Part shown: positions 1-31,653 of the stretch, in pieces
Layout of the letters: the number at the start of each line of letters is the position of its first letter
How positions within the stretch are numbered: position 1 is the first letter of the stretch
Origin: Candidatus Nanohalobium sp.
GTDB lineage: Archaea; Nanohalarchaeota; Nanosalinia; Nanosalinales; Nanosalinaceae
Assembly: GCA_042216335.1 (NCBI GenBank)
Contig: JBDGTY010000006.1
Location: 26,042 to 60,854, forward strand
Length of the DNA stretch: 34,813 nucleotides
Direction of reading: 5' to 3'
Program-made: the position numbers and the translations under genes
The notes under the pieces: generated by a model
Seen by the model: the letters and a program-made list of their open reading frames with translations, nothing else
Database searches by the model: none
Told to the model about the DNA's origin: nothing

Positions 1-1103
1 TCCTCAGGCCGGAGGGTCCTGGAAACAGGTTCCGTTCTCTCAGTCGAGTAGTTGACCATAATTTTGGAAAAGTTCCCCGAGACGTTGAATGTGTAGGCCA
101 TCGACGAGAAGCTCGGAACACGGAAATTTACGCTTTTCTTCACGCCTGCATCGATGGAAAGGTTGACGGTTCTGACCGTGTTACCTCTGTTCACGAAGTC
201 GATAGCCAGGTTGGAACTCGAGGTGTCGTAGCGGACGCCCTCAAGCTTCAGGTTGTACCTTCGGTACGGTGTTTCAATCTTCTTGATGCCATAAATGCCG
301 TCGAAACCGCTGATTCCTGTGAAGGCCCTGCCTGTCTTCACCGCTATCTCCAGGTCTTTATCCGCGATAACGTCGATCTCCTTGGCGTACAGCATGTTCT
401 CGGCGCCGGCTACTTTCAACCTCCTGACACCGGAGCTGTCGATGAAGTTAGCGAGCCTTCTACGGTTCATCCGGAACAGCACGGGCTTGTCCTCGATCAT
501 CCTGGGGTTGAAGTAGCTTCGAGGGGATAGAACGGCCCAGGACGTGTTCATCCTTTTCGCCAGTTCCAGGTTCCTTTCCTGCCACGTCCCGTTGATGTAT
601 TCAGTACTGGAGAACCGTTTTCCGGGGTCGAAGTCGAACTCGCCGTAGAAGACCTTGGGCTTCGAAGAGTTCTCGAGTATCTGTCGGGCTCTCTGGTCGT
701 AGAAAAGTATCCTGTACTCTTTCCTAGCGGCGTATGGAAGTACGGAGACCGCATCCGTACCGAACTTATCGTTGACAACGACGAATCCCTCATGGTCTGT
801 GTAGTTAAGTGAGTTAACGTTCAGGACCTGTTCGAAGTTGAGGCCCGTACGCCTCTCTAGATCAGCGAAAGTCGGCGATTCAGCAGTATAGAGAGTTTCA
901 GGATCTTCTATGGTGTTTGCGGCTATCTTGGCGTCCGGCGGTGTCGCCACTGTGAACGTATCCCGATCCTTCAGGTCTGCGTGGTTCTGTGCCTTCGCCA
1001 CGTCCATCCAGCTGTCGGAGTTTATCACCGAGGTTCCAAGTACGGAGAAGGTCAGGAGTATGAGAAGTGCCGGCAAAAGTGTCTTCCGCGTGGACTGAGT
1101 CAT
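1..1103 (-). CDS. Secreted/cell-surface hypothetical protein, 3' end truncated by window edge
   Basis: Absent from the ORF track (no stop inside the window). Manual translation from ATG at 1103 gives MTQSTRKTLLPALLILLTFSVLGTSVINSDSWMDVAK..., open to base 1 (~367 aa). Sec-type signal peptide, several N-x-S/T sequons, beta-rich distal part. Confidence 0.8.
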   Translation of the reverse strand, partial: MTQSTRKTLLPALLILLTFSVLGTSVINSDSWMDVAKAQNHADLKDRDTFTVATPPDAKIAANTIEDPETLYTAESPTFADLERRTGLNFEQVLNVNSLNYTDHEGFVVVNDKFGTDAVSVLPYAARKEYRILFYDQRARQILENSSKPKVFYGEFDFDPGKRFSSTEYINGTWQERNLELAKRMNTSWAVLSPRSYFNPRMIEDKPVLFRMNRRRLANFIDSSGVRRLKVAGAENMLYAKEIDVIADKDLEIAVKTGRAFTGISGFDGIYGIKKIETPYRRYNLKLEGVRYDTSSSNLAIDFVNRGNTVRTVNLSIDAGVKKSVNFRVPSFSSMAYTFNVSGNFSKIMVNYSTERTEPVSRTLRPE

Positions 1104-1130: not shown

Positions 1131-1157
1131 GTAGGAAAAGCCTTACTTCACGTGTAC

Positions 1158-1649
1158 ATGCAACCGGAAGTTCTGGCAGCGGCAGGCCTCGGAGTATCGG
1201 GCTTCACTCTAATCATAACTTTGACGCTTTTCCACCTCGCAAGGAAGAGGATGGTGGAACTTGAGTCCGATCTGGCCGAGCTCTCCCGGAGGCAGAAGGA
1301 ACTACTGGAAGTAGAGGAGGCGGTCATGGAGAGGCATCCAAGCTACGAGGATTTCGAGAAAACCGTTTCCAACCTTTCAGAAAGGCTTTTCCAGCTTGTC
1401 AGGGAGAAGTACGAGCTCGGAGAGATAACGACCTACGAGGAGATGATTCAGGTCCTGCAGGAGATGGACTCGGAGGACGAAGTCGTGGACGACCTGATCA
1501 ACTTCTTCGAGTACCTTGAGAAGATCGAGTACTCGGAAGAGGAACTGGACGAGGCTGACAGGGCAATGATCCGGCAGGCAGCCTTCAGGTTATTGAGGAA
1601 GGCCGGTTCTAGCCTAGAAGGTTTAGAAGGCCGTAGAGTATCAGGATGA
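1158..1649 (+). CDS. Membrane-anchored acidic helical/coiled-coil protein
   Basis: N-terminal hydrophobic helix (VLAAAGLGVSGFTLIITLTLFHLA) followed by RKR, a heptad-like segment and an acidic helical domain. ATG 1158 preferred over GTG 1152. Confidence 0.8.
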   Translation: MQPEVLAAAGLGVSGFTLIITLTLFHLARKRMVELESDLAELSRRQKELLEVEEAVMERHPSYEDFEKTVSNLSERLFQLVREKYELGEITTYEEMIQVLQEMDSEDEVVDDLINFFEYLEKIEYSEEELDEADRAMIRQAAFRLLRKAGSSLEGLEGRRVSG

Positions 1650-1833
1650 CTTCTCCAGCAACAAGGAAAATCGTCAGGAAATCATAATTAGGTATACCAA
1701 GCTTTCCTTCAATCAGGCTTACTTCCCTCTCCACTTTTTCCTCCAGATTATTCAGGCTTGATTTTTTCTCCTCTTTTTCCTCGGGTTCGAAGCTGAAAAA
1801 CTCTTCTTCGTCTTCTTCTGGCATACTCTTCAC
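1609..1833 (-). CDS. Small acidic tail-anchored membrane protein
   Basis: Acidic N-terminus (EEDEEEFF) and C-terminal hydrophobic helix (FLTIFLVAGEVILILYGLLNLLG). Abuts the stop of the upstream gene. Start is GTG 1833 or ATG 1824. Confidence 0.7.
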   Translation of the reverse strand: MKSMPEEDEEEFFSFEPEEKEEKKSSLNNLEEKVEREVSLIEGKLGIPNYDFLTIFLVAGEVILILYGLLNLLG

Positions 1834-1834
1834 C

Positions 1835-4153
1835 TTATATGAATCTGTCTCTGGTCTTTTTTCCTCTGGTTTTGAGCCTCCAGATTAGTGCCGCTGTCCA
1901 TACCAGCAGCAGGAGCAGGTAGACGGAGACTGATAGTATGTTGTTCGACGGTTTCTCGAGTTCGATCCTCATCGGGGCGAAGCCTAGGACATCTCCGTTG
2001 CTGGTGAAGACGAGTGCGTCGTTGCAGACGTCCTGACTTTCCGAGGTTTTAAGCTGGACCTGAACGCTCTTAGCTGAATTTGCCGGTACTGCGTAGGTAC
2101 GGTTTCCGGTGACCGCGCAGTTGCTTCCTCCACGGAACCTGGCTTCTATACCCTGTATGGGACGGTTGGTCGGGTTCTCGACCTGGACTCCCACGTATCT
2201 CTGCGTGGATGTCTGAAGGCTGAGGAACGGAGGAGATTCAACAACGTTGATCCTCTCCCTGTCTATCAGTTCGGATACGTTGACGGTGAACTGCTCGGTG
2301 TCGACGGTCGAGTCACCGAATTCTGCCTCAATCACCTGCGTCATGTTGCCTTCAGATGCATCTTCGGGTATGGTGACGAGCACCATACCATGCCTTGTCT
2401 CGTTCGGCCTGATAACCTGGAAAGTCTTCGGAACAGACGCCCAGCCCGAGTCAAGGCCAACGGTCACGTTTTCCGCGGCGACAGTTCCCGTGTTGTTCGC
2501 CGTGAATTCCACTGAGATCGTGTCACCTTTCTTGGCATCATAGAGATGCCTGGCTAGCGACAGGTTGAGCTTCACGGGCTGAGGTGTCGGCTGGAAGCTT
2601 GGTCCTCCACCCCCTCCAGCAGCTCCACCGCCGGAGCCACCACCGCCTGTTCCGCCACCTCCAGCATCCCGGGAGCCCTGGCCTTCAGAAGGCGACTGGC
2701 CGCCTGAGTTCTCCTCCCCAGTCTGCTTCTTGCCGTAGAGGGTAAAGATGGAGAAGTTCTTTATCTTTCCTCGATGGAATGCATACCTTGGGTTGACGCT
2801 CAGGTTGACCGCCAGCTTCTTCAGGGCATATGAGTCACCCGTGCCGTCGTACTTGTACATCCTGTTCGGCACCAGATTGGACATGTTAAGGTCGGGATAG
2901 CCCAGTCCCAGGTTCCGGAAGCTTGAACTGTTTGAAAGTCCCGTGACCTTGATCCGTGCACCGACCGGCTGGATATCGCTGCTGATGCCCGCGGGCCGTG
3001 GAAGAGATCGTGTGTAGCCCTGGACAGAGACGGACTCCGCCTCACCATATATAGGAGTGCCGGCTATGGAAACATTTCTGAGCTCGGCCGTCGATCTATC
3101 AAGGGTAATCGCAACACCGGAATCCCTGAGAACGACATCATTTAGAGACAGATTCGAACCATGAGCCTCGATACCGTACGTGTTACCGGAGAGATTCGAA
3201 TCCATCATCTCAGCTTCCGCTTCATCCCGTACGCAGACCGCACTCTGAAAGTTATGCATACTGACATCCATCAGTGTAACGTTTTCAGCTGTCACGGTTA
3301 CACCGCATTCGGCTCCGTCGCCGGTGTGACGCGTGTTGTAGAAATCTATGTACGCTCCTGGATTGGTTATCCTGACGCAGTCGCCCGAATCTATCTCCCC
3401 CATCAGGACGGAGGTCGTGTTCCCGGGCGCCTCTCCACAGCCTCTCACTGCTTTACCCCTGGAGAACAGGTTGACTGAGTAAGAGAAGTTCGAGCCCCGA
3501 AGCTTCGGAAGAAGGGCCTGGAAGTTGCATCCCGATGAGTAGCACTTCTCGTAACCTTCGCTTCCTCTCTTCTTGCCGTCTATCGGCGATACGAAGACAG
3601 GGATGGCTTCGTCTCCTTTTCTGTACTTCAGGAGGTACATGGTCGTGGAGCCGGAAAGGTTGGCGTAGGAGGCGTTGTAGTATTTTCCGTTCAGTTTGAT
3701 CTTCTTTCCTGTCTCGAACGTCCTGGCCGGGTTGTCGAACTTCTGGGAGTAGTCCGGGTAGAAGCTCGGGAAAAGCTCTTTGGAGAAAAGCTGGTTCCTC
3801 TCCAGCAGAGTCCTGTTCGTCATATTGTGCAGGCTAGAGGGTTGAATCTCCGTGACGTTGCCGGGCGCGAAGGCGAGGTAGTATCCTCCTCCCTTGACTC
3901 CTTTAAGTTGGGTAGTTAAGACGTTGCCGGTCTGGTTGGCGTTCAGGCTGAGCTTTCCGACCCTGAAACCTGAGAGAGGTTCGCTTCCTCTATCCACGGT
4001 TCCTGATATACCCGTCCATCTGTCGGATATGACGCTTCGGGAGACATCTGTCTGCTTGATGACTCCTGCATAGAAGGTTACTGCCCCGACAGAGACTGAG
4101 AGTACCAGTAAAGCGGTTAGGATGATTACAGGTTTCGAAACTTCTCGGCCCAT
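1835..4153 (-). CDS. Multidomain surface glycoprotein: signal peptide, domain paralogous to the 4188-4853 protein, parallel beta-helix (NosD/CASH-like) region, Gly-rich linker, two Ig/CARDB-like domains, C-terminal TM anchor
   Basis: Start reassigned to MGREVSKPVIILTALLVLSVSVGA (ATG 4153, AT box 24 nt upstream). Beta-helix-type repeats (CVRIT, GVTVTAENVTL, GNTYGIEAHGSNLSL), GGGGTGGGGSGGGAAGGGGG linker, GDTISVEFTANNTG-type Ig strand, and TM (ILSVSVYLLLLLVWTAALIW) plus a basic tail. Confidence 0.85.
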   Translation of the reverse strand: MGREVSKPVIILTALLVLSVSVGAVTFYAGVIKQTDVSRSVISDRWTGISGTVDRGSEPLSGFRVGKLSLNANQTGNVLTTQLKGVKGGGYYLAFAPGNVTEIQPSSLHNMTNRTLLERNQLFSKELFPSFYPDYSQKFDNPARTFETGKKIKLNGKYYNASYANLSGSTTMYLLKYRKGDEAIPVFVSPIDGKKRGSEGYEKCYSSGCNFQALLPKLRGSNFSYSVNLFSRGKAVRGCGEAPGNTTSVLMGEIDSGDCVRITNPGAYIDFYNTRHTGDGAECGVTVTAENVTLMDVSMHNFQSAVCVRDEAEAEMMDSNLSGNTYGIEAHGSNLSLNDVVLRDSGVAITLDRSTAELRNVSIAGTPIYGEAESVSVQGYTRSLPRPAGISSDIQPVGARIKVTGLSNSSSFRNLGLGYPDLNMSNLVPNRMYKYDGTGDSYALKKLAVNLSVNPRYAFHRGKIKNFSIFTLYGKKQTGEENSGGQSPSEGQGSRDAGGGGTGGGGSGGGAAGGGGGPSFQPTPQPVKLNLSLARHLYDAKKGDTISVEFTANNTGTVAAENVTVGLDSGWASVPKTFQVIRPNETRHGMVLVTIPEDASEGNMTQVIEAEFGDSTVDTEQFTVNVSELIDRERINVVESPPFLSLQTSTQRYVGVQVENPTNRPIQGIEARFRGGSNCAVTGNRTYAVPANSAKSVQVQLKTSESQDVCNDALVFTSNGDVLGFAPMRIELEKPSNNILSVSVYLLLLLVWTAALIWRLKTRGKKTRDRFI

Positions 4154-4187
4154 ATACCTTTTTGGCACTTTCCCCGATTTAAATTCA

Positions 4188-4853
4188 TCACTCCAGCTCG
4201 AGGTACATGCTGTAGGACTTTCCACCGTCACCGTACTCACTTTCCGGCAGGATAAGCTGGTAATCCGCGGCAAAACCGTTGAACGCCACCCCATTCCTGA
4301 TAGGGCCTGCGAAGAAGCCGCCGTTACCGTCACTCAGGTATAGAGTTTCCCAAGCCGGATCACCGGTAGAGTTGTACGTGAACGAGGCAAGAGTGTCGTT
4401 GACCGCCCCGGGCTGAAAACCTGAGTCTATGCTGCCGTTCTTCGAAGTGAAGGTCTCAGAAACCTCCTCACTCCCGTTCTTCAGGAAAGGATACTGCTCC
4501 TGCATGTATGATATGTTGCCTGGGCTCCAGTCACCTGAGAAATCCAGAGGCTGGGAAGAAGCGTAGACATACCTCGCATCCAGCAATCCCCACGAGAAGA
4601 ACGGTGACTGAGTATCCTGGCCGACGATGTACTGGGCGGTCACGTTACCGAAGACCCCCGCCCAGGTATCCGAAGGAGCGCGGGGAGCCGATACATCCAT
4701 CTCCATGACGGTACCGGCTCCGATGCTGTCGTTCTCGGGAGGCGTGGCAGAAGTGAAGTTACCTGTGGTATATGTCTTGTTGATCGAGTCCTGTCCCAGC
4801 ACGGGAGAGGCCAGAAGAAAGATGAAGACCAGGAGGGAAACCTTCCGCCGCAT
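4188..4853 (-). CDS. Small secreted beta-rich protein of unknown function (candidate filament/structural subunit)
   Basis: Signal peptide MRRKVSLLVFIFLLASPVLG, no TM anchor, many N-x-S/T sequons. Motifs WAGVFGNVT, DYQLILPE and terminal YSMYLELE. Confidence 0.85.
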   Translation of the reverse strand: MRRKVSLLVFIFLLASPVLGQDSINKTYTTGNFTSATPPENDSIGAGTVMEMDVSAPRAPSDTWAGVFGNVTAQYIVGQDTQSPFFSWGLLDARYVYASSQPLDFSGDWSPGNISYMQEQYPFLKNGSEEVSETFTSKNGSIDSGFQPGAVNDTLASFTYNSTGDPAWETLYLSDGNGGFFAGPIRNGVAFNGFAADYQLILPESEYGDGGKSYSMYLELE

Positions 4854-4876: not shown

Positions 4877-4891
4877 TTAAAATAGGTTTCC
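4877..4891 (-). promoter_or_regulatory. Putative BRE-TATA promoter of the 4188-4853 gene
   Basis: Minus strand GGAAACCTATTTTAA ending 24 nt before the ATG. Confidence 0.6.
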
Positions 4892-4894
4892 AAG

Positions 4895-7765
4895 CTAGCT
4901 GACAGCCACGAGGATCTTGCCCTCACCGCTCTCCGGCTCCAGTGCCTTCCCGATGGCTGAAGACCGGCAATCCTGGTTGTGAGACATGATCTCTCTAAGA
5001 GGCTTATCTGAGTTCATCGGATCGATGACCTCACACTGCATACCAACGCCCGGAGTACCGGAAGGCACGATCCTGTCACCTCTCTCGATGTCTCCATTGA
5101 CGTCCGAAACCTTGACAGGAACTTTACCGGTGAGTGCGACAGGGTAGCCGTCTACATCGCTGTTCATGGTCTGGCCTGGATCAGTGGAGACTACTCCGAG
5201 AACCTTTCCATCAAACCGTTCATCCGACCTGACAACTCTGTTGTCCTGTGTAGAGGAAACTGTCACTATTTCACCTTTCTCAAGCTCCTGACTGCTCCTG
5301 TAGTTCTCGGCCAGGTCAGCACCGTTCGTGTAGATGTTGCCATAAACCTTGATGCTGTCGTTGACTGAGACGTTTCCTCGTGTGGAGTCAGTGATGTTGA
5401 AACCGTTCATATCCAGGACTCCACCGCTCTGATGAGGCCCGCTTTTCCCGATGTAGTTGTCGGCAAAGGTCACGGAATCCCTGACAGTTGAACTATCCCC
5501 ATTATTGATTTCCAGCACATCGTTCACGTTTGTGGAATTGATCGAAAGGTTCTGGAGTTCATTTGATGGGTCAGCATCTGCATCCGCGTTATTTGCTGAG
5601 ACATAGTTCTTAACCCATCCTAGGTCGGCCACGGCATCGTTATTGGAATCACTCGGAGTACCGTAGTTGTCGATAACTGTTCCATTGGCATTCGCTCCCT
5701 GGGCGAGAACCTCTGTCAGATTCTGGACCTCGTTCGAAGCCGAAGAATCAGCCGCGTCGTACTCACTGTTGGCCGAATCCCAGCTGACCCCGTTACCGGC
5801 AAGCCCGGAAAGCTCATTACCATCGACTAGGTCGGCGTTCAATCCTGAACCACTTCCCTCGTAGACGCTCAAGGTACCGGAACTGTAGTTCAACTGAGCG
5901 CCAGCAACCGAAGAAGCAAGGCTCAAGCTTACATCCGCATCCGTTCCTGGCAGAACATTGTTGGAAGTACCGGAGAGCCCGTTACCTGCCACGAGATCTG
6001 CCTGGATGGCGTTCACGTTGTCCTGAATAGTGATCGAATCCCTGACAGTCGAGCTGTCACCGCTGTTTATCTCGATTACATCATTTGTACTGCCCGAGTT
6101 CACAGTCAGGTTCTGCAGTTCATTCTCGGGGTCAGAGTCTGCATCAGCGTTGCTCGAACTGCTTACATAGTTCTTCACCCATCCGACATCAGCTACAACA
6201 TTATTCTGACTGTCACTTGGACTCCCGTAGTTCACGATAAGTTTGCCATTCGCGTTATTACCCTGACCAAGCACTTCCGTCAGGTTCTGTATCTCGTTGG
6301 ACTGGGATGCGTCCGCGTCAGCATTGTTGGAGGCCACGTAACCTTTCAGCTGGCTGTAGGTGACCGCTGCCTGTGACTGGGTCGAGTTCGACAGATTAAG
6401 AATCGCTGTACTGCCAGCGTCGTTGCTGACACTCAGTACATTCCCGAGTCCTTGATTGTCTGTATCAGCCTGGAAGTCATCCCTTACAGTAACTGTATTA
6501 CCGTTCTGGATGGTGATGGAGTCGTTCCTGCCATCTGTATTGTTGCTTACTGTCAGGGTCTGGTCATCGGAGCCTGCCTGGCTTATCTGATTATCGACGT
6601 ATGTCTTATTGACGGCGTCGCCACCACTGTTCGGAGCAGGGATTCCTGTAATCCTGAAACCACTCATATCAATATTTGTATTTGCAACAGCTCCCTCAGA
6701 AAGAACCTGTGCCAGCGTCTGGTTGTCGGTACCGTTTTCATCGGTAAAGGAGGTATCAGCCCCGTTCTCAATCGGGATAGTCACAATCTGACCGGAACGT
6801 GTCGTGGCCTGAAGGTTCTGGTCGTCTGTACCGTTTGGAACGTAGTAATCCTTGATGGCGGCGTCCTGACCATTCGTTATCTCAATCTGGTGAGAAACAC
6901 TGCTTGCCCCAGAAGGAGCTGAAGCATTCACTGAACTCAGATCCTGATTATCGGTATCCTGCTCGTAGGCATCATCCACAATCACATAATTACCTTCACT
7001 GATCGAGAGATTGTCATCTACACCTGAAATGTTCGCAGTAAATGAAAGAGTCTGGTTGTCGCTGCCACCTGACACAGAATCAACATAAGACTTGTTTACC
7101 GCGTCTCCCGGACTATTCGCGACCACGTTCTGAAGCTGGTGGCCGTTCAGGTTGATGCTCTGGTTCGCCAGAGCACCGTAAACGAGAACCTCGGAAAGAG
7201 TCTGATTATCGGTATCGGCCTCGAAGTTGTCATCCAGAGTAATCGAACTGTAAATCGTGCTGCTGTCCCCGCTATCCAAGTTGATCACGTCATCGATACT
7301 GGCAGAGTTAATAGTAATATTCTGTAACTCATTTGCGGAATCCGAGTCACCATCCGCATTGTTCTGGTCAATATAGTTTTGAACGTACCCTACATCAGCC
7401 ACAGCATCTGTGTTAGAATCCGAGACATTGCCGTAATTTTCGATAATAAGACCTCCAGCACTGTTTCCTCTACCCAACACAACCGAAAGATTAGCGCCCG
7501 TACGATCATCCACATAAGCCTTAGTGGCTGCTTCATGGGGAAGAGTAGGGCGGGAAAGATTGTAGATAGTATTTCCATGCAGGTTCAGATCCGTAGAGAC
7601 AGTCATATTGTCCAGAGTGGACTGTATCTCATAGCTTCCGGATATCACACCGTTCTGAAGAGTAATCGAGTCAGGGGTTAAGGTAAGTGACTGAGCGGTA
7701 ACCGGGACTGCCAGAAGCCCAATCACGCCCAGAAAAACTGCAAATCTAGAGAGACGAATTTTCAT
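4895..7765 (-). CDS. Secreted tail-fibre/trimeric-adhesin-like repeat protein with C-terminal peptidase G2-like intramolecular chaperone domain
   Basis: Signal peptide. Neck/stalk motifs AATKAYVD, DAVNKSYVD, DAVNKTYVD and fibre motif GSGSGLNADLVDG. Internal ~90-aa repeats. C-terminal GADLAENY...GVVSTDPG...PVALTGKVPVKV...GDRIVPS...IGKALE domain. Confidence 0.8.
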   Translation of the reverse strand: MKIRLSRFAVFLGVIGLLAVPVTAQSLTLTPDSITLQNGVISGSYEIQSTLDNMTVSTDLNLHGNTIYNLSRPTLPHEAATKAYVDDRTGANLSVVLGRGNSAGGLIIENYGNVSDSNTDAVADVGYVQNYIDQNNADGDSDSANELQNITINSASIDDVINLDSGDSSTIYSSITLDDNFEADTDNQTLSEVLVYGALANQSINLNGHQLQNVVANSPGDAVNKSYVDSVSGGSDNQTLSFTANISGVDDNLSISEGNYVIVDDAYEQDTDNQDLSSVNASAPSGASSVSHQIEITNGQDAAIKDYYVPNGTDDQNLQATTRSGQIVTIPIENGADTSFTDENGTDNQTLAQVLSEGAVANTNIDMSGFRITGIPAPNSGGDAVNKTYVDNQISQAGSDDQTLTVSNNTDGRNDSITIQNGNTVTVRDDFQADTDNQGLGNVLSVSNDAGSTAILNLSNSTQSQAAVTYSQLKGYVASNNADADASQSNEIQNLTEVLGQGNNANGKLIVNYGSPSDSQNNVVADVGWVKNYVSSSSNADADSDPENELQNLTVNSGSTNDVIEINSGDSSTVRDSITIQDNVNAIQADLVAGNGLSGTSNNVLPGTDADVSLSLASSVAGAQLNYSSGTLSVYEGSGSGLNADLVDGNELSGLAGNGVSWDSANSEYDAADSSASNEVQNLTEVLAQGANANGTVIDNYGTPSDSNNDAVADLGWVKNYVSANNADADADPSNELQNLSINSTNVNDVLEINNGDSSTVRDSVTFADNYIGKSGPHQSGGVLDMNGFNITDSTRGNVSVNDSIKVYGNIYTNGADLAENYRSSQELEKGEIVTVSSTQDNRVVRSDERFDGKVLGVVSTDPGQTMNSDVDGYPVALTGKVPVKVSDVNGDIERGDRIVPSGTPGVGMQCEVIDPMNSDKPLREIMSHNQDCRSSAIGKALEPESGEGKILVAVS
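5455..7490 (-). repeat. Degenerate protein-level repeats within the fibre gene
   Basis: Three copies of LxxVLxxGxxAxGxxIxNYGxxSDSxxxxVADxGxVxNY...NADxDxDxxNELQN...GDSST...DN, and two copies of DNQTLxxVLxxGAxANxxI...DAVNKxYVD...DxQTL...GN. Confidence 0.85.
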
Positions 7766-8009: not shown

Positions 8010-10529
8010 ATGAAGAAACTGGCAGTGATCCTAGGAATCCTGCTCTGCGGGACGGCCGCGGCACAGGTCACAGTCAAACCCAACATAGAGTTTGTCCTGC
8101 CCGATACGAATACACGGGTAACGGTAGGCGAATCTTTCGGGGCGCAGAACGTCACGGTAAACAATGACTCGCTGCAGATGGGGCACAAAAACTTCTCCTT
8201 CACCCAGTACAGAAACGGAACGTACAAACCACTTACGATAAAAATCGCGAGCTATGACTTCACTTTCAGCAGCTACCCTAAGGTTTTGATGCAGTTCAGT
8301 GCCAAATCAGGCGCCAGCGGAGACAAGTTCGTATACGCCAACATCTCAAGTCTGCCTGACCTCCCATCTGCCTCAGGAACGGATACGGAACCGGTTTACA
8401 GGCTTTCATCCGGAAGTGATACCTCTCAGTCCTTAGAAGGCAACATAGCTATAAACGAGACTTTCTCCAGTGGGGCAGTTTTCACTCTGGAGGCCGGTGT
8501 TCCGGGAAGCTTCGACGAGAAACAGAACACCACTGACTCGAAGGGGCAGACATCAACCGGAGGTAGCTCCGGCGGGGGCGGGGGAAGCTACTCAGGGCCA
8601 ACTCAACAGCAGTTAAACAATATAAATGAGACATTGCAGGAGTTGAAGGAGCAGCTTGACAACGCTTCGGAGTACATCGATTTCAGCAGTAGCAGCATCA
8701 ACGCGGAGCTAAAGCCAGGCGAGTCAAAGAGAACCAGCATAACACTTGTCAACAACCTGAACCGATCCCAGACGTTCAATATCTCGACCACCAGCGATGT
8801 AAGGGAATACATCAAGGTCCAGGATTCCCTCACAGTAGCGCAGGGAGAGAGCAAGAAGCTCGATGTTAAGATCACTATCCCTTCGACCGAGTTGCCGAAG
8901 AGTGTTTCCGGCAGCCTGAAGTTCAGCAGTTCACTCGTCGACAAGGCCAGTATCCCTGTGAATATCGATGTCTTGCCTCCGGATCGCCAGACTCTGAGTC
9001 TCAGCCTGAACCCATTGTTCAACACTGTAGCCCCGGGCGAGACTCTCAGGTTCGAGGCCAAGCTGCAGAATGAGGGTTACACCGGCACGATCAACGTGAC
9101 CACGGATATAGAGCTGAAGGATCCCGAGACAGGGAACGTTATAGCCAGGAAAACCGTGACCGCCGAGGTAGGAGGCTCCAAGACTGACGTAGTGACGATA
9201 GAGGTGCCGGAGAACGCCACGAAACAGCAGTACACTCTGGAGGGAACATCAACGTATACAGGCATCAACGCCTCGGAACAGGCTACCTCTATAGCACCTG
9301 TCACGGTCGCGACACCGTTCTGGAAGAGGAAAGTCGCCGGAGTCACATACAGGAACGGCGCGATAGCCTCAATCATCCTGCTGATCCTGGGGATCGGAGG
9401 CTACTACGGATACAGATACAGACAGGCCATCATCGCGAAGAAGCGACGCTACGACGAAGACATAGACATGGAAACTATCCCAAGCGGCGGAGAAGACCAG
9501 GCCTACGTAGGTCAGATCGCGGAGAGAGGTAAGAGAACATTCGTGGAGATGGATGACCTGATGACACACGCGATGGTTGCCGGAGCCACAGGATCCGGTA
9601 AAACCGTTACAGGACAGGTCATGGCCGAGGAAGCACTCAAGGAAGGAAAGAACGTCATCGTCCTCGACCCTACAGCCCAGTGGACCGGATTCCTCCGGGA
9701 AAACACAGACGACAGCATGTTCAGCGAATACGATAAGTTTGACATGTCTAAGAGTGATGCACAGGCCTTCGACGGCAACATCCGGGCCGTAGAGCCAGGA
9801 GAATCCATCGACATCACTCCTTACCTGAACGAGGACAGCGATATTGACGGACAGATCATAATCTTCAGCCTCCACAAGCTCGACAGCAAAAATATCGACA
9901 AGTTCGTCAAAGAGACCATCCAGCAGGTGTTCGACGCCAACCTGCCGGAGCAGAACCATTTAGAGACCATGATAGTATACGACGAGGTTCACAGGCTGCT
10001 CGACGAGTTCGGAGGGAGTGGAAAAGGACTGAAACAGGTCGAGAGAGGTGCAAGAGAGTTCAGGAAGTGGGGTATCGGCATGTTGCTGCTTTCCCAGGTT
10101 ATCAGCGACTTCCCGCACGAGGTCAGGACCAACATCGGCACAACAGTCCAGATGCGTACAGAGGACGAGAACGACCTTGACAGGATGAAGGACAAGTTCG
10201 GCATGGACACAGTCAAATCCATCGCCAAGGCTGAGATCGGGTCAGGCATGCTTCAGAACCCGGAATATAATCACGGTCGGCCATACTTCGTCGACTTCAG
10301 ACCGCCGCTCCACAGCCCACACAGGCTCAGCGACTCCGAACTCGAGAAATACGAGCAGTACAACAAGATGATCGATCTGCTCGAACAGAAAGTCGATAAG
10401 ATGAAAAGCTCCGGCAAGGACACCTATGAACTGGAGAGCGAGATTCAGCTGGCGCGTAAAAACCTGAAGAAGGGAAGCTTCAACCTCGTAGAGACATACA
10501 TTGAGGAACTGAAGGAAGAACTTCAGTAG
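8010..10529 (+). CDS. Type I membrane protein with a large extracellular Ig-like region fused to a cytoplasmic FtsK/HerA-superfamily (DUF87-like) ATPase
   Basis: Signal peptide MKKLAVILGILLCGTAAA, Gly linker and two Ig-like domains. TM GAIASIILLILGIGGYYGY (~9357-9413) followed by RYRQAIIAKKRR. Walker A GATGSGKT (9582-9605), VIVLDP strand, Walker B MIVYDEVH, REFRKWG Arg-finger region and LLSQ motif. Confidence 0.9.
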   Translation: MKKLAVILGILLCGTAAAQVTVKPNIEFVLPDTNTRVTVGESFGAQNVTVNNDSLQMGHKNFSFTQYRNGTYKPLTIKIASYDFTFSSYPKVLMQFSAKSGASGDKFVYANISSLPDLPSASGTDTEPVYRLSSGSDTSQSLEGNIAINETFSSGAVFTLEAGVPGSFDEKQNTTDSKGQTSTGGSSGGGGGSYSGPTQQQLNNINETLQELKEQLDNASEYIDFSSSSINAELKPGESKRTSITLVNNLNRSQTFNISTTSDVREYIKVQDSLTVAQGESKKLDVKITIPSTELPKSVSGSLKFSSSLVDKASIPVNIDVLPPDRQTLSLSLNPLFNTVAPGETLRFEAKLQNEGYTGTINVTTDIELKDPETGNVIARKTVTAEVGGSKTDVVTIEVPENATKQQYTLEGTSTYTGINASEQATSIAPVTVATPFWKRKVAGVTYRNGAIASIILLILGIGGYYGYRYRQAIIAKKRRYDEDIDMETIPSGGEDQAYVGQIAERGKRTFVEMDDLMTHAMVAGATGSGKTVTGQVMAEEALKEGKNVIVLDPTAQWTGFLRENTDDSMFSEYDKFDMSKSDAQAFDGNIRAVEPGESIDITPYLNEDSDIDGQIIIFSLHKLDSKNIDKFVKETIQQVFDANLPEQNHLETMIVYDEVHRLLDEFGGSGKGLKQVERGAREFRKWGIGMLLLSQVISDFPHEVRTNIGTTVQMRTEDENDLDRMKDKFGMDTVKSIAKAEIGSGMLQNPEYNHGRPYFVDFRPPLHSPHRLSDSELEKYEQYNKMIDLLEQKVDKMKSSGKDTYELESEIQLARKNLKKGSFNLVETYIEELKEELQ

Positions 10530-16264: not shown

Positions 16265-18271
16265 ATGGCGATACTCCCTGACTCCGAACTGAAGAAACTC
16301 GTCAACCAGAAAGACGCAGTCTACGTCGACGACGGCCCGGAAATCGATGAAGATCTCCAGATCGGCCCTTCAAGCATGGATCTCAGGATGGGATACGAGT
16401 TCGGAGTCCTCAACACCCGGAAGATCGAAAAAGTCGACACAAAAAACATGGAAAAGTACTCGGACTACATGAAAAATGAGAAACACTCCGCAGAAGAAGG
16501 AGTAGTCGTCCATCCCGGAGAATTCATCCTCGGATCTACACTTGAAACAGTAAACGTGCCCAGCAATCTCGTCGCCCGCGTAGAAGGACGCAGCAGCTAC
16601 GGAAGGCTTGGCATAATAGTCCACGCTTCTCTACCTTATGATGAGCAGATTCTTCACTGGAACGAAGAAAACGGCTATAGATTCCTTGAGATAGGGAAGA
16701 TAGTTGAGGAAGAAGTGGAAGGTTATGCTGTTTCATTTAATCCTGAAACCAAGGAAGTAAGTAAGCATCAGATAACTGATTTTATAGAAAATCCTCCAAA
16801 AGATATCTACCGAGTTGAGACAGAGAAAGGTCGTGAAGTACGTATAACGGAGGATCACAACCTATTCACCCTAAGTGGAGAGGGTGATATCGAGAAAGTG
16901 AAGACCCAAAACGTCGAAGGAGAGAGAATCGCAGTCCCGCGTAAGATTGAGACCGGAAACAAAGTTCCAGAAGTAGATTTAGTTGAACTTTTCAGAGAGA
17001 AAGGCCTTGAAGAGGATGTGATGGTTTCCTCCCAAGGTATAGTCCAGAAAGCCAGTGTCGAAAACAAAGAGATGGAAAGATACTATGCTGAAGAGGATAC
17101 GGCACCTCTAAAATCTGTAGACAAAATTAGCGGAGAAGCACAACTGTCTTTCAAGCAGAGCACGGCACAGTTCAATCAGAAACTTAAACTAACACCTGCA
17201 TTCGCCTATACAGCCGGGTTCTTCCTAGCAGAAGGAGCACAGAGAAGAAAGCAACTTAACTTTGCAAACAAGAACACGAAATTCCTGGAAAAAGTCAAGG
17301 ATTATTTCAGGCAGTTCGATGTCGGTTTCTACGAGAAGGAAGATGAAAACAACTGTACATACCTGACCGTCAGTTCGGCCTTTTTCTCCAAAGTCTTCGA
17401 GGCACTGGACCTAGCCGACAAGCGAATCGGAGATAAGCTCCTAGATATGCCAGAAGAATGTCTGGAACAGCTCTACCAGGGTCTGATCGATGGAGATGCA
17501 GCAATCCGAGGAGATAGAGTGGAATACTATACCTCCAGCAAGGATTTAGCCAGCGACATATCCTATCTATGCTCAATGCTTGGCAAGGTCTGCAGTATAA
17601 CTTACCGGGAAAGAGAAGACGGTAGAGACGAGTACCGACTTGAGATAAGAGAAAAACCTCATAAACTGCTACAAGGCATCCCAGTACCTTCAAAGCTCTT
17701 AAGACACGTCCGAAGCGAAATAGGGCTCTCCATGAAAGAGGTGGCATCCGAACTAGGCTACAGCTCCAAGAGCAGCATCTCAAACCTTGAAAACAAGGAA
17801 TATGAGACAGTCAGGAGAAAAAATCTTCAAAAAATCTCCCAGTACTACTACAAAAGAGCAGAGGACAAAGAGGCTAAACAAAAGGCAGAGAAACTGAGAC
17901 AGATAGCCAATTCAGATCTCCTATTCGACCAAGTAGAAAGGGTGGAAAAGATAGCAGAGAAACAGCCAAACTACGACCTCGAAGTCCAGCCAAATGGACA
18001 GAAAATCGAGAACTTTCTCGGAGGGCATGGAGGCATCTTCCTGAGCAACACAGCAGGCTACATAGACCCCGGATTTGAGGGCGACATCACTCTGGAGATA
18101 CAGAACCTTGGAAACGCACCAGTAAAGCTCTATCCCGAGGATCGTGTCTGCCAGATAGTCTTTGAGACCATGACAGAGGAGGCAGAGAGCCCGTACGGCG
18201 AGAAAAAAGACACAAAATACATGGGGCAGACAGGAGCGACCGGATCGCGGCTTGAAGAAGAGAAGCGGTAG
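16265..18271 (+). CDS. dcd: dCTP deaminase containing an intein
   Basis: QIGPSSMDLR, PGEFILGST, EGRSSYGRLGIIVHA|TAGYIDPGFEGDITLEI, RVCQIVF and KYMGQ. Spliced product 194 aa. Confidence 0.96.
   Translation: MAILPDSELKKLVNQKDAVYVDDGPEIDEDLQIGPSSMDLRMGYEFGVLNTRKIEKVDTKNMEKYSDYMKNEKHSAEEGVVVHPGEFILGSTLETVNVPSNLVARVEGRSSYGRLGIIVHASLPYDEQILHWNEENGYRFLEIGKIVEEEVEGYAVSFNPETKEVSKHQITDFIENPPKDIYRVETEKGREVRITEDHNLFTLSGEGDIEKVKTQNVEGERIAVPRKIETGNKVPEVDLVELFREKGLEEDVMVSSQGIVQKASVENKEMERYYAEEDTAPLKSVDKISGEAQLSFKQSTAQFNQKLKLTPAFAYTAGFFLAEGAQRRKQLNFANKNTKFLEKVKDYFRQFDVGFYEKEDENNCTYLTVSSAFFSKVFEALDLADKRIGDKLLDMPEECLEQLYQGLIDGDAAIRGDRVEYYTSSKDLASDISYLCSMLGKVCSITYREREDGRDEYRLEIREKPHKLLQGIPVPSKLLRHVRSEIGLSMKEVASELGYSSKSSISNLENKEYETVRRKNLQKISQYYYKRAEDKEAKQKAEKLRQIANSDLLFDQVERVEKIAEKQPNYDLEVQPNGQKIENFLGGHGGIFLSNTAGYIDPGFEGDITLEIQNLGNAPVKLYPEDRVCQIVFETMTEEAESPYGEKKDTKYMGQTGATGSRLEEEKR
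16628..18049 (+). mobile_element. Intein (474 aa) with LAGLIDADG homing endonuclease and XRE-type HTH
   Basis: Starts SLPYDE, block B ITEDHNLF, endonuclease motifs AGFFLAEG and QGLIDGD, HTH GLSMKEVASELGYSSKSSISNLE, block F NYDLEV, ends FLSN|T. Visibly more A/T-rich than the exteins. Confidence 0.93.
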
Positions 18272-20885: not shown

Positions 20886-23102
20886 CTAGAGCCGGCCGTT
20901 CATCTTCCTGTAGCCGACCTCCGCAAGGAAGACGATCAAAGCAGCGAGTAATAAGAAGGGTGCGAGCGAAACCTGCTGCCTGACCGTTCGGTCGATCTCC
21001 TCTACCTCCTCATTTATCTCACCGGCGTTTGAGAAGTCGAAAATGCTTCCTCCTGTTTTCTGGGCGATCTTCGAGAGCTTGTCCTGGTTCAGGCCGATCT
21101 TTCTGATCTCCGGATGGTAGTTGTAGGCGTACGTCTCGTTCCTCCAGGAATGTATCCCGAGACCGGGTTTTTCCAGTTCACCAATGTATAGGTCGCGTGA
21201 CTGCCGGGTCAATCCCTTTAACTGGTAGGAGGCACTTACTTCGGGCTTCTCTGGCCTCGATGCATCGGATACGTCCAGCCATCTGTCCTTCTTCCTCTGC
21301 GGGTTGCCGACCGTCCAGGAGACCGTTCTTGAGATCAGGCCAGGATCGGTCTTGACTGTTCTGTCGAGGTTCTTGCCGCCTGCGGAGAACGCTGCTACCC
21401 TGCCGAGTCCGTATCTCCAGGTGGAGAGGAATTCCTTGCCGTTCGAGCCGGAGACCAGTGTATTCGCCGATCTCTTCGTCTTCACAGGTTTGAAGCCTGT
21501 TGTCGCCCCGTCAAGCTCCAGTCCCTCGGTGATGAAGTGGTTCGGGTTCACCACTGCGATAGGTGTGTACTGTGATTCTCCACCGCCCGAGCCGAAACGG
21601 AATTTCAGCCTACCGGCCTCCTTGTTCTCGAGGTAGTAGCCACCAGTGGTTTTGGCGATGTCCTTGAGTAGAGGCTTGTTCGGATCCTCTCCCATGCCGA
21701 CGGTTATCAGCTTGGCCTCCATCGCATTGGCCTCGGTACGTGTCTTGAATGCGATGTTCTGCCTGTTGTACACTCCTATCCTACCGTCGCTCAGCATCAC
21801 GACCGTGTCGTTCTTCTCTGCCAGCGAGGCTGCACCTCTGATACCCAGATCGTGGAATGATGGTCCAGAAGGCGAGATCTTTGAGATCTTCCTCTTTATC
21901 TCCTTTCTGCTGTATGCAAGGGATTTGGGTTCGGATACAAGGTATGATTCACGGTTGTAGGCGACTACACCGACCTCGTTACTCTTTTTGAGAGTATCGA
22001 CCAGAGAGTAGGCGATCCTGAGAGACTCCTTGCTTACTTTGCCCTGCTCACCGACCTTGAAGCATACGTCAGTGTTCTTGGATTGGCAGCTTCCTGTGCT
22101 GGCGGAGATATCGATCAGTATTATGACTCGGGCGCCTGCTTCCTCATCTTCTTTTTGATCTTTCTGCACGGGAAGATAAGACGGAATCCGCTCCATTGAG
22201 CCGGTGTACATCAGGCCGTTTCCGTCGGCTATGTAGTTCCTGAGCCTCTGACTGTCCAATGGTTTCTTCATGATTACTGTGTAGTAGTCTTCAAGGTTTT
22301 CCGGCAGGTTCTGCCTGTTGTCGACCTCGTAGAACTTCTTCAGGTTCTGTTCAAGTATTCCGGTCTTGCCGATGGCGAGTATCTCCGGTTTCTCCCTGAC
22401 CTCAACTGTTTTGTAGTACCTGTTGTTCCTCGTAAAGATGTCGTTCGATGTGATCGCGGCCTGGATCGTGTGCTGTCCTTTCAACTGGAACTTCCGGTTG
22501 AAGCTGTAGGAATCATTGATTTTGCCGGTGTATATGACTTCTCCGTCGAGCGTGATGTTGACGGGGACCGGTTTCTCCCTTGTCGAGCTTATCTTGACCT
22601 GGAATGTGTTCTGCGCTCCCAGGACTGTTGTGAAGGGACCTTCTATCCTGACCGCTGCTTCAACCCGGGTTTCTGGCCTGTAGATGGATACAGTGGCGTT
22701 CTTCCTCTTCGCTGTTTTCACGAGTTCTGAAGTCTGTTCTTCGGTCTGTCCGTCGGTGACGAGGAGGTTGTAGCTTCCCTGTTCGATGGTTGAGGCTGCC
22801 TGTGAGAAGATCCTGGAGTTGTTGCCCTGTATGAATACTGTTCTGGTTCCGTCGACAGGTACGTTTTTCTCCAGGACCCTGGCGGATGTGGTATTGTCGA
22901 TGAGGATATTGATCTTCTGCTCCGTCGTGGCCTGTTTCACCTGTGTTATGGCCGGGCCTGCTGCGGCTGCGACCAGAAGTACTATCACAAGTGTTCTGGT
23001 TCCTGCCACCTTCCTGGTGTAGTTTTCGCCTCGCGGGATGAGTTTCAGGGCTAGAAGCGCTAGTGGAAGAAGCACCAGGAATTCCGGGTTCTGCAGCATC
23101 AT
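20886..23102 (-). CDS. Membrane-anchored VWA domain protein (with Ig-like and GATase-like segments)
   Basis: Two N-terminal TM helices, MIDAS ILIDISAS...MLSDG, degenerate first VWA (ILIDNTTS...LVTDG), WRYGLGRVAAF and C-terminal TM. Confidence 0.88.
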   Translation of the reverse strand: MMLQNPEFLVLLPLALLALKLIPRGENYTRKVAGTRTLVIVLLVAAAAGPAITQVKQATTEQKINILIDNTTSARVLEKNVPVDGTRTVFIQGNNSRIFSQAASTIEQGSYNLLVTDGQTEEQTSELVKTAKRKNATVSIYRPETRVEAAVRIEGPFTTVLGAQNTFQVKISSTREKPVPVNITLDGEVIYTGKINDSYSFNRKFQLKGQHTIQAAITSNDIFTRNNRYYKTVEVREKPEILAIGKTGILEQNLKKFYEVDNRQNLPENLEDYYTVIMKKPLDSQRLRNYIADGNGLMYTGSMERIPSYLPVQKDQKEDEEAGARVIILIDISASTGSCQSKNTDVCFKVGEQGKVSKESLRIAYSLVDTLKKSNEVGVVAYNRESYLVSEPKSLAYSRKEIKRKISKISPSGPSFHDLGIRGAASLAEKNDTVVMLSDGRIGVYNRQNIAFKTRTEANAMEAKLITVGMGEDPNKPLLKDIAKTTGGYYLENKEAGRLKFRFGSGGGESQYTPIAVVNPNHFITEGLELDGATTGFKPVKTKRSANTLVSGSNGKEFLSTWRYGLGRVAAFSAGGKNLDRTVKTDPGLISRTVSWTVGNPQRKKDRWLDVSDASRPEKPEVSASYQLKGLTRQSRDLYIGELEKPGLGIHSWRNETYAYNYHPEIRKIGLNQDKLSKIAQKTGGSIFDFSNAGEINEEVEEIDRTVRQQVSLAPFLLLAALIVFLAEVGYRKMNGRL

Positions 23103-24763
23103 CTGAGTTCACCTCTGCGGGAAAGATACGTCATCTCCAGTGCTCCGATCAATGCGAGCAGTGCCGCGATGTACTTCCGGGCCGGATCCCTACCAGGGCT
23201 GTCTCCTACATCCGTCCTTGAAGTGGCAGTGTTGATATTTGGTGAGGACTCCTCCGGGTTGAGGAGATTGGCCGCATACGTCGGCTTGCCCCTGTAAAAA
23301 CCTGTCCCGGGGACAGTGGTGTAGCCCCTGATCTTCCGGCCGCGATAGGTGACGGAGTTCCCGAAGGTGTGCTGCGTGCCTGTCTCCAGGTTAAGCTCGC
23401 TTCCGGTCTTCAGGTCTGTCATCCTTCCGATCACCTGTTTCCAGAAGATTGGGTAGTTAAGCTTCTGACCGAAGCTTCCATCATCGACGTTGTAGAGCAG
23501 TACATCCTCATCCTGAGACAGCACCAGTGCCTCCTCAGGCTCCGCCAGGGATGTACCGGTGACGTCGTAGCCAGTTACAGATGAGTTGAAGCTGGTCGCC
23601 ATCCCTGCCGAAACCCTGACCTGTGTAGTGTAACTCCCAGAAGCATTTTCCACAGGCGCGAACTCGGGCAAGTCTTCTCTGTTCTCAAGTATAATTTTAG
23701 CGCCAGCCTTCAATTTCTGCCTCAGCTTGGTTTTTCTTTCCTCTGTCAGCTCGAACTCCTCTCCTATGAAGTAGACGTCAGCCTCACTGATGCTTTCATG
23801 ATGAGTGTAGGAGGTCGAGTTGATGAGTTCGATAGCCGTCCTGAAGTACCTGCTTTCCTCTCCGAGGTACGCGACCTTTATGTTCCTGTTCTCCGGCATC
23901 GAGACGTACAGCTTGTTATCCAGTGAGAACTCATCCATCGGAAGGGAGAGCTCCTTGGCGCCACCCGAGAGATCTATTGAAACTGTCTCCGATGAGAGAG
24001 GTGGAATGACCACTTTCCTGTTCTCCCCCGGCTTCTGCAGTTCGATGGTCCGATTCCGGTCGATGAAGTTCCGGATTGTGACCTCGGCCCTCCCGTTCTC
24101 TACCCTCAGATCAGTGAACCCGTGACTGTTCCTGTGGTCGATATCCATGACTTTGACCGTCCTGTCAGCCGCAAGCTCGTTAAGCACAGAATCCAGGTCT
24201 CCGCCACCCGTATGATCCATGTCAGATGCGATCACAACTTTTCCTCCGAAGTTCGAGGCCAGCTGGAGGGCTGAGACAAGGTCTGTGCTCGAGGCCGAGT
24301 TCTCGTGGCCCTGTATGAAGCTGCGCGCCCTCTCCGTCGAGGCATCCCGCAACTCGATCTCAGGGCTTCCTGATACAGTGATAATCGTGTTCCTGTTGCC
24401 GAGGTGCTTCAACGCAAAGTTTTCGACCTGCTGTCGGTTGTCATGCATGCTCGCAGAGGTATCAAGGAGGATAACGGTTTTCCCATCCGATTCAAGGCCG
24501 GAAACCAACGGATTGGCGATCGCCAAGGCCGCTAGAGAGATAAACAGTATGTGTAGCAACAGAAGACGGTTTCTCTTGAGCGCCTGGAGAGCGTTCTGTA
24601 TCTTTCCCTTTTTCTGATCCTCGGAGAAGAACGCCATCGACGGCATGACCTCTTCCTCAGGCTTCGGCTTCACCAGGTAGGAGATCAACAAAGGGATTAT
24701 CCCGAGAAGGGCGAGGAGGCCTGCTGGGTTGACGAAGTTCCGGGTTATCGCTTCAATCATCAC
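23099..24763 (-). CDS. BatA N-terminal + VWA domain membrane protein
   Basis: FVNPAGLLALLGIIPLLISYLVKPKP...MPS BatA signature, ALAIANP, MIDAS ILLDTSASM, IASD, ANLLNPEES and C-terminal TM. Confidence 0.9.
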   Translation of the reverse strand: MMIEAITRNFVNPAGLLALLGIIPLLISYLVKPKPEEEVMPSMAFFSEDQKKGKIQNALQALKRNRLLLLHILFISLAALAIANPLVSGLESDGKTVILLDTSASMHDNRQQVENFALKHLGNRNTIITVSGSPEIELRDASTERARSFIQGHENSASSTDLVSALQLASNFGGKVVIASDMDHTGGGDLDSVLNELAADRTVKVMDIDHRNSHGFTDLRVENGRAEVTIRNFIDRNRTIELQKPGENRKVVIPPLSSETVSIDLSGGAKELSLPMDEFSLDNKLYVSMPENRNIKVAYLGEESRYFRTAIELINSTSYTHHESISEADVYFIGEEFELTEERKTKLRQKLKAGAKIILENREDLPEFAPVENASGSYTTQVRVSAGMATSFNSSVTGYDVTGTSLAEPEEALVLSQDEDVLLYNVDDGSFGQKLNYPIFWKQVIGRMTDLKTGSELNLETGTQHTFGNSVTYRGRKIRGYTTVPGTGFYRGKPTYAANLLNPEESSPNINTATSRTDVGDSPGRDPARKYIAALLALIGALEMTYLSRRGELR

Positions 24764-31601: not shown

Positions 31602-31653
31602 GACTGAACTTTTAATCGGAGGGCATAAAAGCTTGAAACCAGCCTACCTAACT

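Follow-up and report, generated by a model that had tools for sequence, protein, structure and literature searches.

A free secreted protein and the N-terminal domain of its membrane-anchored neighbour are remote homologues within a conserved surface gene cassette of DPANN archaea

Two adjacent genes in the genome of Candidatus Nanohalobium sp. encode a small secreted protein, P0001, and a larger, membrane-anchored one, P0002. They lie in a stretch of 34,813 nucleotides (nt) (assembly GCA_042216335.1, contig JBDGTY010000006.1, positions 26,042 to 60,854 of the forward strand), which is referred to below as the window. P0001 and residues ~25-232 of P0002 (the N-domain) are, with a confidence that comes close to certainty, remote homologues, that is, copies of one unnamed, extracellular, β-rich domain whose divergence is old. 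It is also highly probable that the two proteins are part of a conserved cell-surface cassette, which in all likelihood comprises at least one free subunit, a type-I membrane protein that resembles CWB2, a surface protein with the N-domain, and, in some genomes, giant proteins that have a signal peptide as their only membrane-directed segment. A preliminary description of this DNA had noted the likeness between the two proteins and had interpreted the pair as a polymer subunit and its base; the observation is confirmed, and the interpretation is partly supported, in that the secreted family and the layout of the pair were borne out and the polymer gained no direct support.

P0001 (4188-4853, minus strand; 221 amino acids (aa)) starts with a signal of the Sec type (residues 1 to ~21), which is followed by a variable linker and by the conserved domain (residues ~44-221); the domain stops exactly at the C-terminus (...SYSMYLELE). 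The protein contains nine N-x-S/T sequons and no cysteine, and it is acidic (25 D+E versus 10 K+R). P0002 (1835-4153, minus strand; 772 aa, 23 sequons, eight cysteines) starts with a hydrophobic segment (residues 6-23), which is either a signal or a signal-anchor, and continues with the P0001-like N-domain (3458-4081, minus strand), a divergent paralogue of the domain in P0001. There follow a region of short strands, which is β-helix-like by weak matches only, and an immunoglobulin (Ig)-like region (together residues ~246-476), a Gly/Ser-rich linker (residues 478-525) with a predicted local distance difference test (pLDDT) value below 50, Ig-like domains that include NPCBM_assoc (residues 529-733), and a transmembrane helix (residues 742-762; 1868-1930, minus strand), which constitutes the membrane anchor and is followed by a basic tail. 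The density of the sequons suggests a glycosylated surface protein. Both open reading frames (ORFs) were found where the preliminary description had placed them, on the same strand and separated by a spacer of 34 nt. Since all nine proteins of the P0002 family start at the Met that corresponds to the ATG at 4153, this ATG is the correct start, and not the GTG of a longer ORF, which extends to 4333.

The relationship between P0001 and P0002 escapes a comparison of the two single sequences: the best BLASTP E value was 0.49, on a different and non-collinear stretch, and Smith-Waterman alignment with 1000 shuffles gave a z of 1.9 at gap penalties of 11/1 (51 of the 1000 shuffles as high) and of 1.1 at 8/1 (145 of 1000). 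It appears when hidden Markov models (HMMs) are aligned with each other. Using hhalign, the profile of 12 relatives of P0001 aligned with that of nine relatives of P0002 at an E value of 1.2e-5 over 183 columns when the signal peptides were included and at 4.3e-4 when they were not; a 74-row family profile aligned with residues 28-245 of P0002 at P 5.5e-5 over 162 columns, and, with the option -M 50, the family profile and the N-domain reached a score of 50.0 (P 2.1e-7, 165 columns). None of 249 column-shuffled controls scored as high (mean 12.9, maximum 21.2); for the alignment in reverse, the score was 13.3. Negative controls with the rest of P0002 gave P values of 0.7 and 0.85, and those with two neighbouring surface-protein families gave 0.23 to 0.63. 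The six pairs of short motifs from which the preliminary description had started are all present and collinear in the two proteins, and hhalign pairs five of them as they had been quoted; the sixth, TLYL/TMYL, is two residues out of register.

Intermediate sequences connect the two families. The HMM of the P0001 family matches the N-domain of the P0002 orthologue in each of the seven genomes of the taxonomic family that have one (1.6e-8 to 4.1e-4; these E values, and those of the next two sentences, were obtained on small sets of ORFs). Two proteins from sister genera, of 538 aa (genome G004) and 535 aa (G024), match the HMM of the P0002 N-domain at 4e-34 and 4e-36 and that of the P0001 family at 1.6e-8 and 4e-8, respectively, and their N-domains are less diverged than that of P0002. 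The N-domains of G054, G061, G069, and G068 match the P0001-family HMM at 5e-6 to 6e-5. A search with the single N-domain sequence of G004, in a database of ~170 proteins belonging to these two families only, recovered the P0002 family first (2e-30 to 2e-22), followed by dozens of free members (from 8e-8). When the source genome (1.02 Mb, 96% complete, 74 contigs) was scanned with the family HMM, the matches were P0001 (2.4e-66, HMM positions 1-224), a second free paralogue located 7 kb away, and, in third place, the W-x-G-x-x-G region of P0002 (E 0.007). The one sequencing run listed for this stretch is a DNA run of a salt-lake metagenome, which may be its source, and no RNA run is listed; the size of the genome, the acidic proteins, and the habitat fit a nanohaloarchaeon-like DPANN organism.

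The predicted structures bear on the same question. The AlphaFold2 (AF2) model of P0001 has a pLDDT of 86 and a predicted template modelling score (pTM) of 0.78, while that of P0002 has a pLDDT of 68 overall, with the N-domain mostly at 50-86 and some of its stretches below 50. Both models, which were made from separate alignments, contain the same 12 elements in the same order, namely four strands, two helices, and six strands; the DSSP state is equal at 116 of the 162 positions aligned by hhalign, as against 32-61% in 12 shifted registers. The N-domain of P0002 has kept the motifs W-x-G-x-x-G, T-F, N-F-Q-x-L-L-P, and Y-S-V and differs in that the chain runs on past the last strand, unlike in 155 of 158 other instances of the domain. 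Chance, or the convergence of two β-rich secreted proteins without a common origin, would fit the pairwise comparisons that are not significant, the hhalign probability of just 34-81%, which depends on trimming, and the modest confidence of the N-domain model, but this explanation is close to refuted, and very improbable, given the shuffles that never reach the profile score, five unrelated profile controls at P 0.23-0.85, proteins that match both families, N-terminally placed domains in other phyla with family-HMM matches as good as 6e-24, and secondary-structure elements that come in the same order.

The pair had been described as a duplication, and homology is indeed what is found; a recent local event is not. 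In an unrooted tree of 37 chosen domain sequences, which leaves out many members of the family and one partial copy, all 11 anchored-type domains form a single clade (100/100) on a long branch. The branching within this clade (G069 with G068, G004 with G024, and G000, the genome of the window, near G061) follows the same pattern as among the adjacent free genes. The congruence of the anchored clade with the free-gene subtree shows that the pair is old and co-inherited, and not the outcome of a recent local duplication. In the same tree, the sister group of the giants' C-terminal domains consists of free genes from the same genus, those of G004 and G024 (96/86).

The family to which both copies belong can be delimited. 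P0001 has 11 close relatives in a set of 5.8 billion proteins, and an exhaustive search brought the family to 157 cluster representatives at E <= 1e-3; P0002 has eight relatives with the same architecture. Members share W-x-G-x-x-G, located in the first strand, T-F, which follows the second helix, D-Y-Q-x-I-L-P, and Y-x-E-L, in the last strand at the C-terminus; P0001 matches the profile over its full length and carries these motifs, which are invariant or nearly so in the family alignments. The conserved aromatic residues are W64 and W88, to which Y97, W168, Y198, and Y217 are added in the close set. The preliminary description had associated W-x-G-x-x-G-N-V and a terminal Y-x-x-Y-x-E-L with an uncharacterised secreted family of DPANN archaea, and this was borne out: W-x-G-x-x-G and the terminal Y-x-x-Y-x-E-L are signatures in the alignments of the close and the wide sets, and relatives occur in Micrarchaeota and Woesearchaeota records. 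Look-alikes of P0001 in the ESM Atlas are hypothetical archaeal clusters only (Microcaldota, Woesearchaeota, and Nanobdellota), the next structures having a template modelling score (TM-score) of at most 0.32; residues 28-245 of P0002 gave no usable feature match there and structure rows at a TM-score of at most 0.35.

At E <= 1e-5, matches to the family HMM are present in 12 of the 70 genomes sampled from the phylum to which the window belongs; the corresponding figures are 22 of 81 for the phylum with the Micrarchaeota locus and 28 of 81 for that with the Woesearchaeota locus. The family, present in 17-35% of the genomes sampled in three DPANN phyla, is thus widespread but patchy. One match, in the Micrarchaeota genome with locus L007 (G072:C6:5349-6020), contains one in-frame TGA, which could be a sequencing error, the sign of a broken gene, or a case of recoding.

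No known family or fold was recognised. P0001 has no Pfam family at E <= 1 and no NCBIfam model, and none of 74 members has a relevant Pfam family. A search of PDB sequences returned, for the family profile, a single unrelated row (E 0.37) and, for the alignment of the P0002 family, just rows from the Gly/Ser linker. The preliminary description had named pilins, TasA, cannulae, and tail tubes as folds against which the domain should be compared, and here the search came back empty: the P0001 model gave no Foldseek match at E <= 0.001 in the PDB or in BFVD (best E in BFVD, 0.048), and among 48,161 chains the best Z of VIA-align was 3.3. Foldseek searches with the whole P0002 model returned tandem Ig-like matches only, from the C-terminal half. 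No description of the family was found in the literature, in which an unnamed family cannot be searched for by name and in which the supplementary family tables of PMC8204110 may list it by number. Two hypothetical proteins are thus brought into a defined domain family with a predicted fold for which, at the level of models, no neighbour among solved structures was detected.

The domain occurs in three forms. The free form comprises proteins of ~200-280 aa, of which 1 to ~8 copies stand in tandem, the arrays of up to ~8 paralogues being located beside giants. Overall, 158 instances of the domain extend to the last position of the model, and in 155 of them at most three residues separate the end of the domain from the C-terminus of the protein. 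In the second form, the domain is fused to the C-terminus of another protein; this is the case for all seven true fused forms among the 150 representatives listed, with the domain at the extreme C-terminus of four giants of ~3,100 aa and of three smaller fusions (one of them behind a β-helix). The four giants were checked and have a signal peptide, no other transmembrane segment, and DUF2341 and Ig-like domains. Similarly, 11 of 11 large ORFs (941-4,878 aa) sampled in the other two phyla end 0-16 aa after the domain.

In the third form, to which P0002 and its orthologues belong, the domain directly follows the signal or transmembrane segment. This form may be split: in G004, G024, and G054, a protein of 518-538 aa comprises an N-terminal hydrophobic segment and the N-domain, and the part with the β-helix, the Ig-like domains, and the transmembrane segment is encoded by a separate gene two places on. 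Six loci in two other phyla, which were chosen because the hit tables showed a mid-size ORF beside a free copy and are therefore not a random sample, encode N-domain proteins of 463-537 aa with the domain at residues ~20-215 (family HMM, 8e-11 to 6e-24). In three more ORFs, of 1,187-1,361 aa, over 300 residues come after the domain.

The gene order is conserved as well. In the taxonomic family of the window, a free gene lies directly 5' of an N-domain gene on the same strand in eight of the eight loci that hold such a free gene (G000, G061, G069, G068, G054, G004, G024, and G001, in which a stub takes the place of the partner). Five of the six loci from other phyla have the order one or more free copies, then a protein of 491-585 aa with a signal and a C-terminal transmembrane segment, and then the N-domain protein; in the sixth (L034), the free and the N-domain genes are adjacent and divergent. 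A free copy beside an anchored one, the layout noted in the preliminary description, is found again across phyla. In G001, which belongs to the same genus as the window, the orthologue of P0002 is a 101-aa ORF (L004, 8686-8991) that covers profile positions 1-81 only; the free gene is intact and 58% identical to P0001, and a protein resembling the C-terminal part of P0002 is encoded on another contig.

The most constant neighbour of the free copies, in three phyla, is the gene for a CWB2-like protein. Proteins of this family have a signal peptide, CWB2-like repeats, Ig-like (CARDB) domains, and a C-terminal transmembrane segment. A profile of 13 members, including four of the five partners from other phyla, matches Cwp6 of C. 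difficile (PDB 5j72) at E 6.6e-15 over profile positions 115-275, and three of the 13 match Pfam CW_binding_2 (best 8.3e-7). These families were themselves considered as carriers of the domain and rejected (hhalign P 0.23-0.63).

What do the copies do for one another? The most likely explanation, to which we give an even chance, is docking between like domains, which would tether the free subunits and the giants to the anchored copy. Anchorless giants carry the domain at the very C-terminus and anchored proteins at the very N-terminus, and it also exists in free form, a pattern that an association module with two different ends would explain most simply. The giants, moreover, need some form of attachment, and their sole conserved terminal module is this domain, so docking through the domain would provide it. 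In such a mechanism, like domains would bind head to tail: the anchored copy, in which the N-terminal end of the domain is free, would hold free subunits, in which both ends are free, and the giants, in which the C-terminal end is free, would cap the other end. What would result is a glycosylated structure for attachment, anything from a short cap to a long fibre, on the cell surface of an episymbiotic archaeon.

Several observations weigh against this docking. We infer it from the placement of the domain, and no contact between domains was seen in any of the results. The intact free gene of G001, next to an anchored gene that is a stub, indicates that the free protein can persist alone. No N-domain gene lies within the stretches analysed around the second free paralogue of the Nanohalobium genome or around the loci of G042, G064, and G029, the last three of which have free copies and a CWB2-like gene. 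The split N-domain protein of G004 (538 aa) has an N-terminal transmembrane segment only, and hydropathy indicates a C-terminal one in just two of the six N-domain proteins from other phyla. The neighbours scanned with Pfam and NCBIfam include no recognisable chaperone, usher, sortase, or dedicated peptidase, and no fold relative among known filament subunits was detected with Foldseek (PDB and BFVD) or VIA-align. The AF2 monomer places residues 41-60 in cis at a pLDDT of 75-85, so nothing in the model calls for a strand from a partner. Finally, the patchy presence of the family indicates that it is accessory. A complex prediction for mature P0001 with residues 25-245 of P0002 gave a median score of 0.01 against a mark of 0.32 (runs at 0.37, 0.01, and 0.00), and weighs neither way.

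Another possibility, which is unlikely, is that the domain is a binding head which works alone on a ligand such as a glycan or the host surface, in which case the copies would not bind each other and the adjacency of their genes would reflect co-regulation only. The heads would be secreted free, displayed on the stalk of P0002, or carried at the far end of the giants. The conserved aromatic residues would suit a binding site, the domain in P0002 is the one farthest from the C-terminal anchor and lies beyond a flexible Gly/Ser linker, and a patchy distribution in multiple copies fits host-range factors that evolve fast. Surface proteins of DPANN archaea with lectin-like or pectin-lyase-like parts have been proposed as host-attachment factors (bioRxiv 10.1101/2023.10.27.564410). 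Such heads, however, would leave unexplained why 155 of 158 instances of the domain stop right at the C-terminus, why it has a C-terminal place on anchorless giants, and why a free copy stands directly upstream of the anchored one in eight of eight loci; nor was any match to a lectin or carbohydrate-binding module fold found (best Z 3.3).

If docking does occur, its product could be a true filament, which we regard as unlikely. More doubtful still is the most elaborate proposal, in which DPANN archaea of several phyla would build a surface fibre or tether of a kind not seen before from a subunit with a new fold, with free subunits chained head to tail, a giant adhesin at the far end, an N-domain protein (here the membrane-anchored P0002) at the cell end, and the CWB2-like protein as an assembly or holding factor, the whole forming an organelle for gripping the host.

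A surface coat appears improbable. In this explanation, the free subunits would be glycosylated lattice proteins whose glycans are bound by the CWB2-like membrane protein, and P0002 would be a further member of the lattice, by analogy with the CWB2-anchored S-layer proteins of Clostridioides. It has in its favour the wide conservation of the CWB2-like type-I membrane protein, which no other neighbour equals across the three phyla, along with the similarity of that protein to PDB 5j72, the three members that match Pfam CW_binding_2, and the nine sequons in the 221 aa of P0001. A coat gives no reason for the fused forms to differ in polarity, N- versus C-terminal, and presence in just 17-35% of the sampled genomes would be odd for a basic layer of the envelope. 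Moreover, these archaea are not known to have a secondary cell-wall polymer to which CWB2 could bind. In C. difficile, CWB2 tethers surface proteins non-covalently. The case of Cwp6 differs from the present one in that the repeats are here on an archaeal type-I membrane protein, and the likeness is that of a neighbour and not of P0001 or P0002.

Docking between like domains invites comparison with known filaments. In chaperone-usher pili, the tip adhesin FimH combines a lectin domain with a C-terminal pilin domain, and a terminator subunit is located at the base. The present proteins resemble them in falling into three classes of one domain, namely a C-terminal copy on a large protein, which would be tip-like, free copies in the middle, and a special cell-proximal copy. 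They appear to differ in fold, no chaperone or usher was recognised among the neighbours scanned, and there is no outer membrane; the strand exchange of those pili would be hypothetical here.

Closer in lifestyle are the Pam pili of the Candidate Phyla Radiation (CPR) bacterium Candidatus Mycosynbacter amalyticus, for which it has been proposed that a membrane-tethered protein terminates the filament: its N-terminus would enter the final subunit and in this way tether the filament to the membrane (PMC13278184). Pam pili also share with the present system ultra-small episymbiotic organisms, operons with paralogous secreted subunits, and the lack of a trans-envelope machine (PMC13278184). The fold matches of the tandem Ig-like C-terminal part of P0002 include RbmA, the fold named in that report for the Pam terminator PamR, and a very common one. 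The differences are that the host here is archaeal, that the constant partner is CWB2-like, and that assembly is here hypothetical. No relation of P0001 to the Ig-like Pam pilins was detected in sequence or fold, pilin chains giving Foldseek E values above 1 only, and no membrane-anchored PapD-like chaperone was seen among the neighbours scanned with Pfam and NCBIfam. As judged from sequence, then, this is a cassette on a subunit-and-anchor pair of paralogues for which no homology to the chaperone-usher or Pam systems was found.

The TasA superfamily, with CanA cannulae, AbpA bundling pili, and Sulfolobus threads, also has Sec-secreted, β-rich archaeal subunits of ~200 aa, frequently with neighbouring paralogues and in principle without a chaperone, as the available part of a survey describes (PMC12518558). 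That part describes the superfamily mainly in Thermoproteota and other non-DPANN lineages and contains no mention of anchored or giant fused forms (PMC12518558). None of 74 members of the present family matches Peptidase_M73 (PF12389) at E <= 0.01. No TasA-like, AbpA, or thread chain is among the best 50 of the 57 chains with Z >= 2 (48,161 aligned), a missing match that does not exclude a jelly-roll fold for P0001.

The means by which DPANN archaea attach to their hosts are for the most part unknown, and annotation is lacking for the majority of the surface proteins specific to their lineages (PMC8204110). The family and its CWB2-like partner constitute a concrete and testable candidate for an attachment structure of these archaea. 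If docking were true, it would explain how giant anchorless surface proteins stay on cells; if the fibre were true, the fold of the subunit and the parts list would make a new class.

Both genes of the pair are preceded by TATA-like, A/T-rich boxes. The first, TATTTTAA (4877-4884, minus strand), lies ~27 nt 5' of the ATG of P0001 and is a possible promoter of its own for this gene, with a leaderless transcript; the second, AATTTAAAT (4177-4185, minus strand), lies in the 34-nt spacer, ~28 nt 5' of the ATG of P0002, and is a possible separate promoter.

Directly 3' of P0002 is a gene for an acidic protein of 74 aa with a C-terminal transmembrane segment (1609-1833, minus strand), which is convergent with a gene for a 165-aa protein with an N-terminal transmembrane segment and a coiled coil (1152-1649, plus strand), the 3' ends of the two overlapping by 41 nt. 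Matching by position gave an ORF of similar size (75-116 aa) in the place of the first gene at six other loci and an ORF of 158-187 aa in the place of the second at four (G054, G061, G068, and G069); the transmembrane segments and the coiled coil were checked in the window only. The combination of a small acidic ORF and an opposite-strand ORF of 158-187 aa after the N-domain or anchor gene is thus found at five of the eight loci (these four and G000), seven of which were checked for it, G004 and G024 having the small ORF only. In G000, G054, G061, and G069, two CWB2-like proteins and the second free paralogue come next. A secreted protein that is a paralogue of the CWB2-like membrane-protein family is encoded at 3-1103 (minus strand) and runs off the start of the window. 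The second free paralogue abuts VWA, DUF58, and MoxR genes in G000, G061, and G069, and the contig of G054 ends there. In the source genome, this cluster, which encodes a MoxR ATPase, a DUF58 protein, and a VWA/BatB-like membrane protein, occupies L020 6001-9742, just upstream of the window and directly 5' of the second free paralogue; a second free paralogue also lies beside MoxR-DUF58-VWA genes in G042, and a second BatA/VWA pair is found inside the window (20886-24763, minus strand).

On the other side of P0001, a 956-aa secreted protein (4895-7765, minus strand) has long internal repeats (...NLTEVL.QGN.A.G..., DAVNK.YVD) and a distinct C-terminal domain and gave no sequence match in Pfam, NCBIfam, or the PDB. 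A relative of 1,141 aa, encoded upstream of the window (L020 804-4229), combines YadA_head repeats (8.4e-14) with a PQQ_2 β-propeller. The surface cassette is adjoined by a gene for an 839-aa protein (8010-10529, plus strand) with a signal peptide, Ig-like domains, a transmembrane segment at ~442-468, and then a cytoplasmic ATPase of the HerA/FtsK/VirB4 type; it matches the DNA-import ATPase CedD weakly (1.9e-11, far below the cut-off) and may be a surface-linked translocation ATPase. The genes of the window are archaeal (aRF1, replication factor C, dCTP deaminase, and Lhr). Those for dCTP deaminase (16265-18271, plus strand) and a replication factor C subunit (31564-34752, plus strand) each contain an intein with a LAGLIDADG endonuclease, to which a helix-turn-helix domain is added in the intein of the dCTP deaminase.

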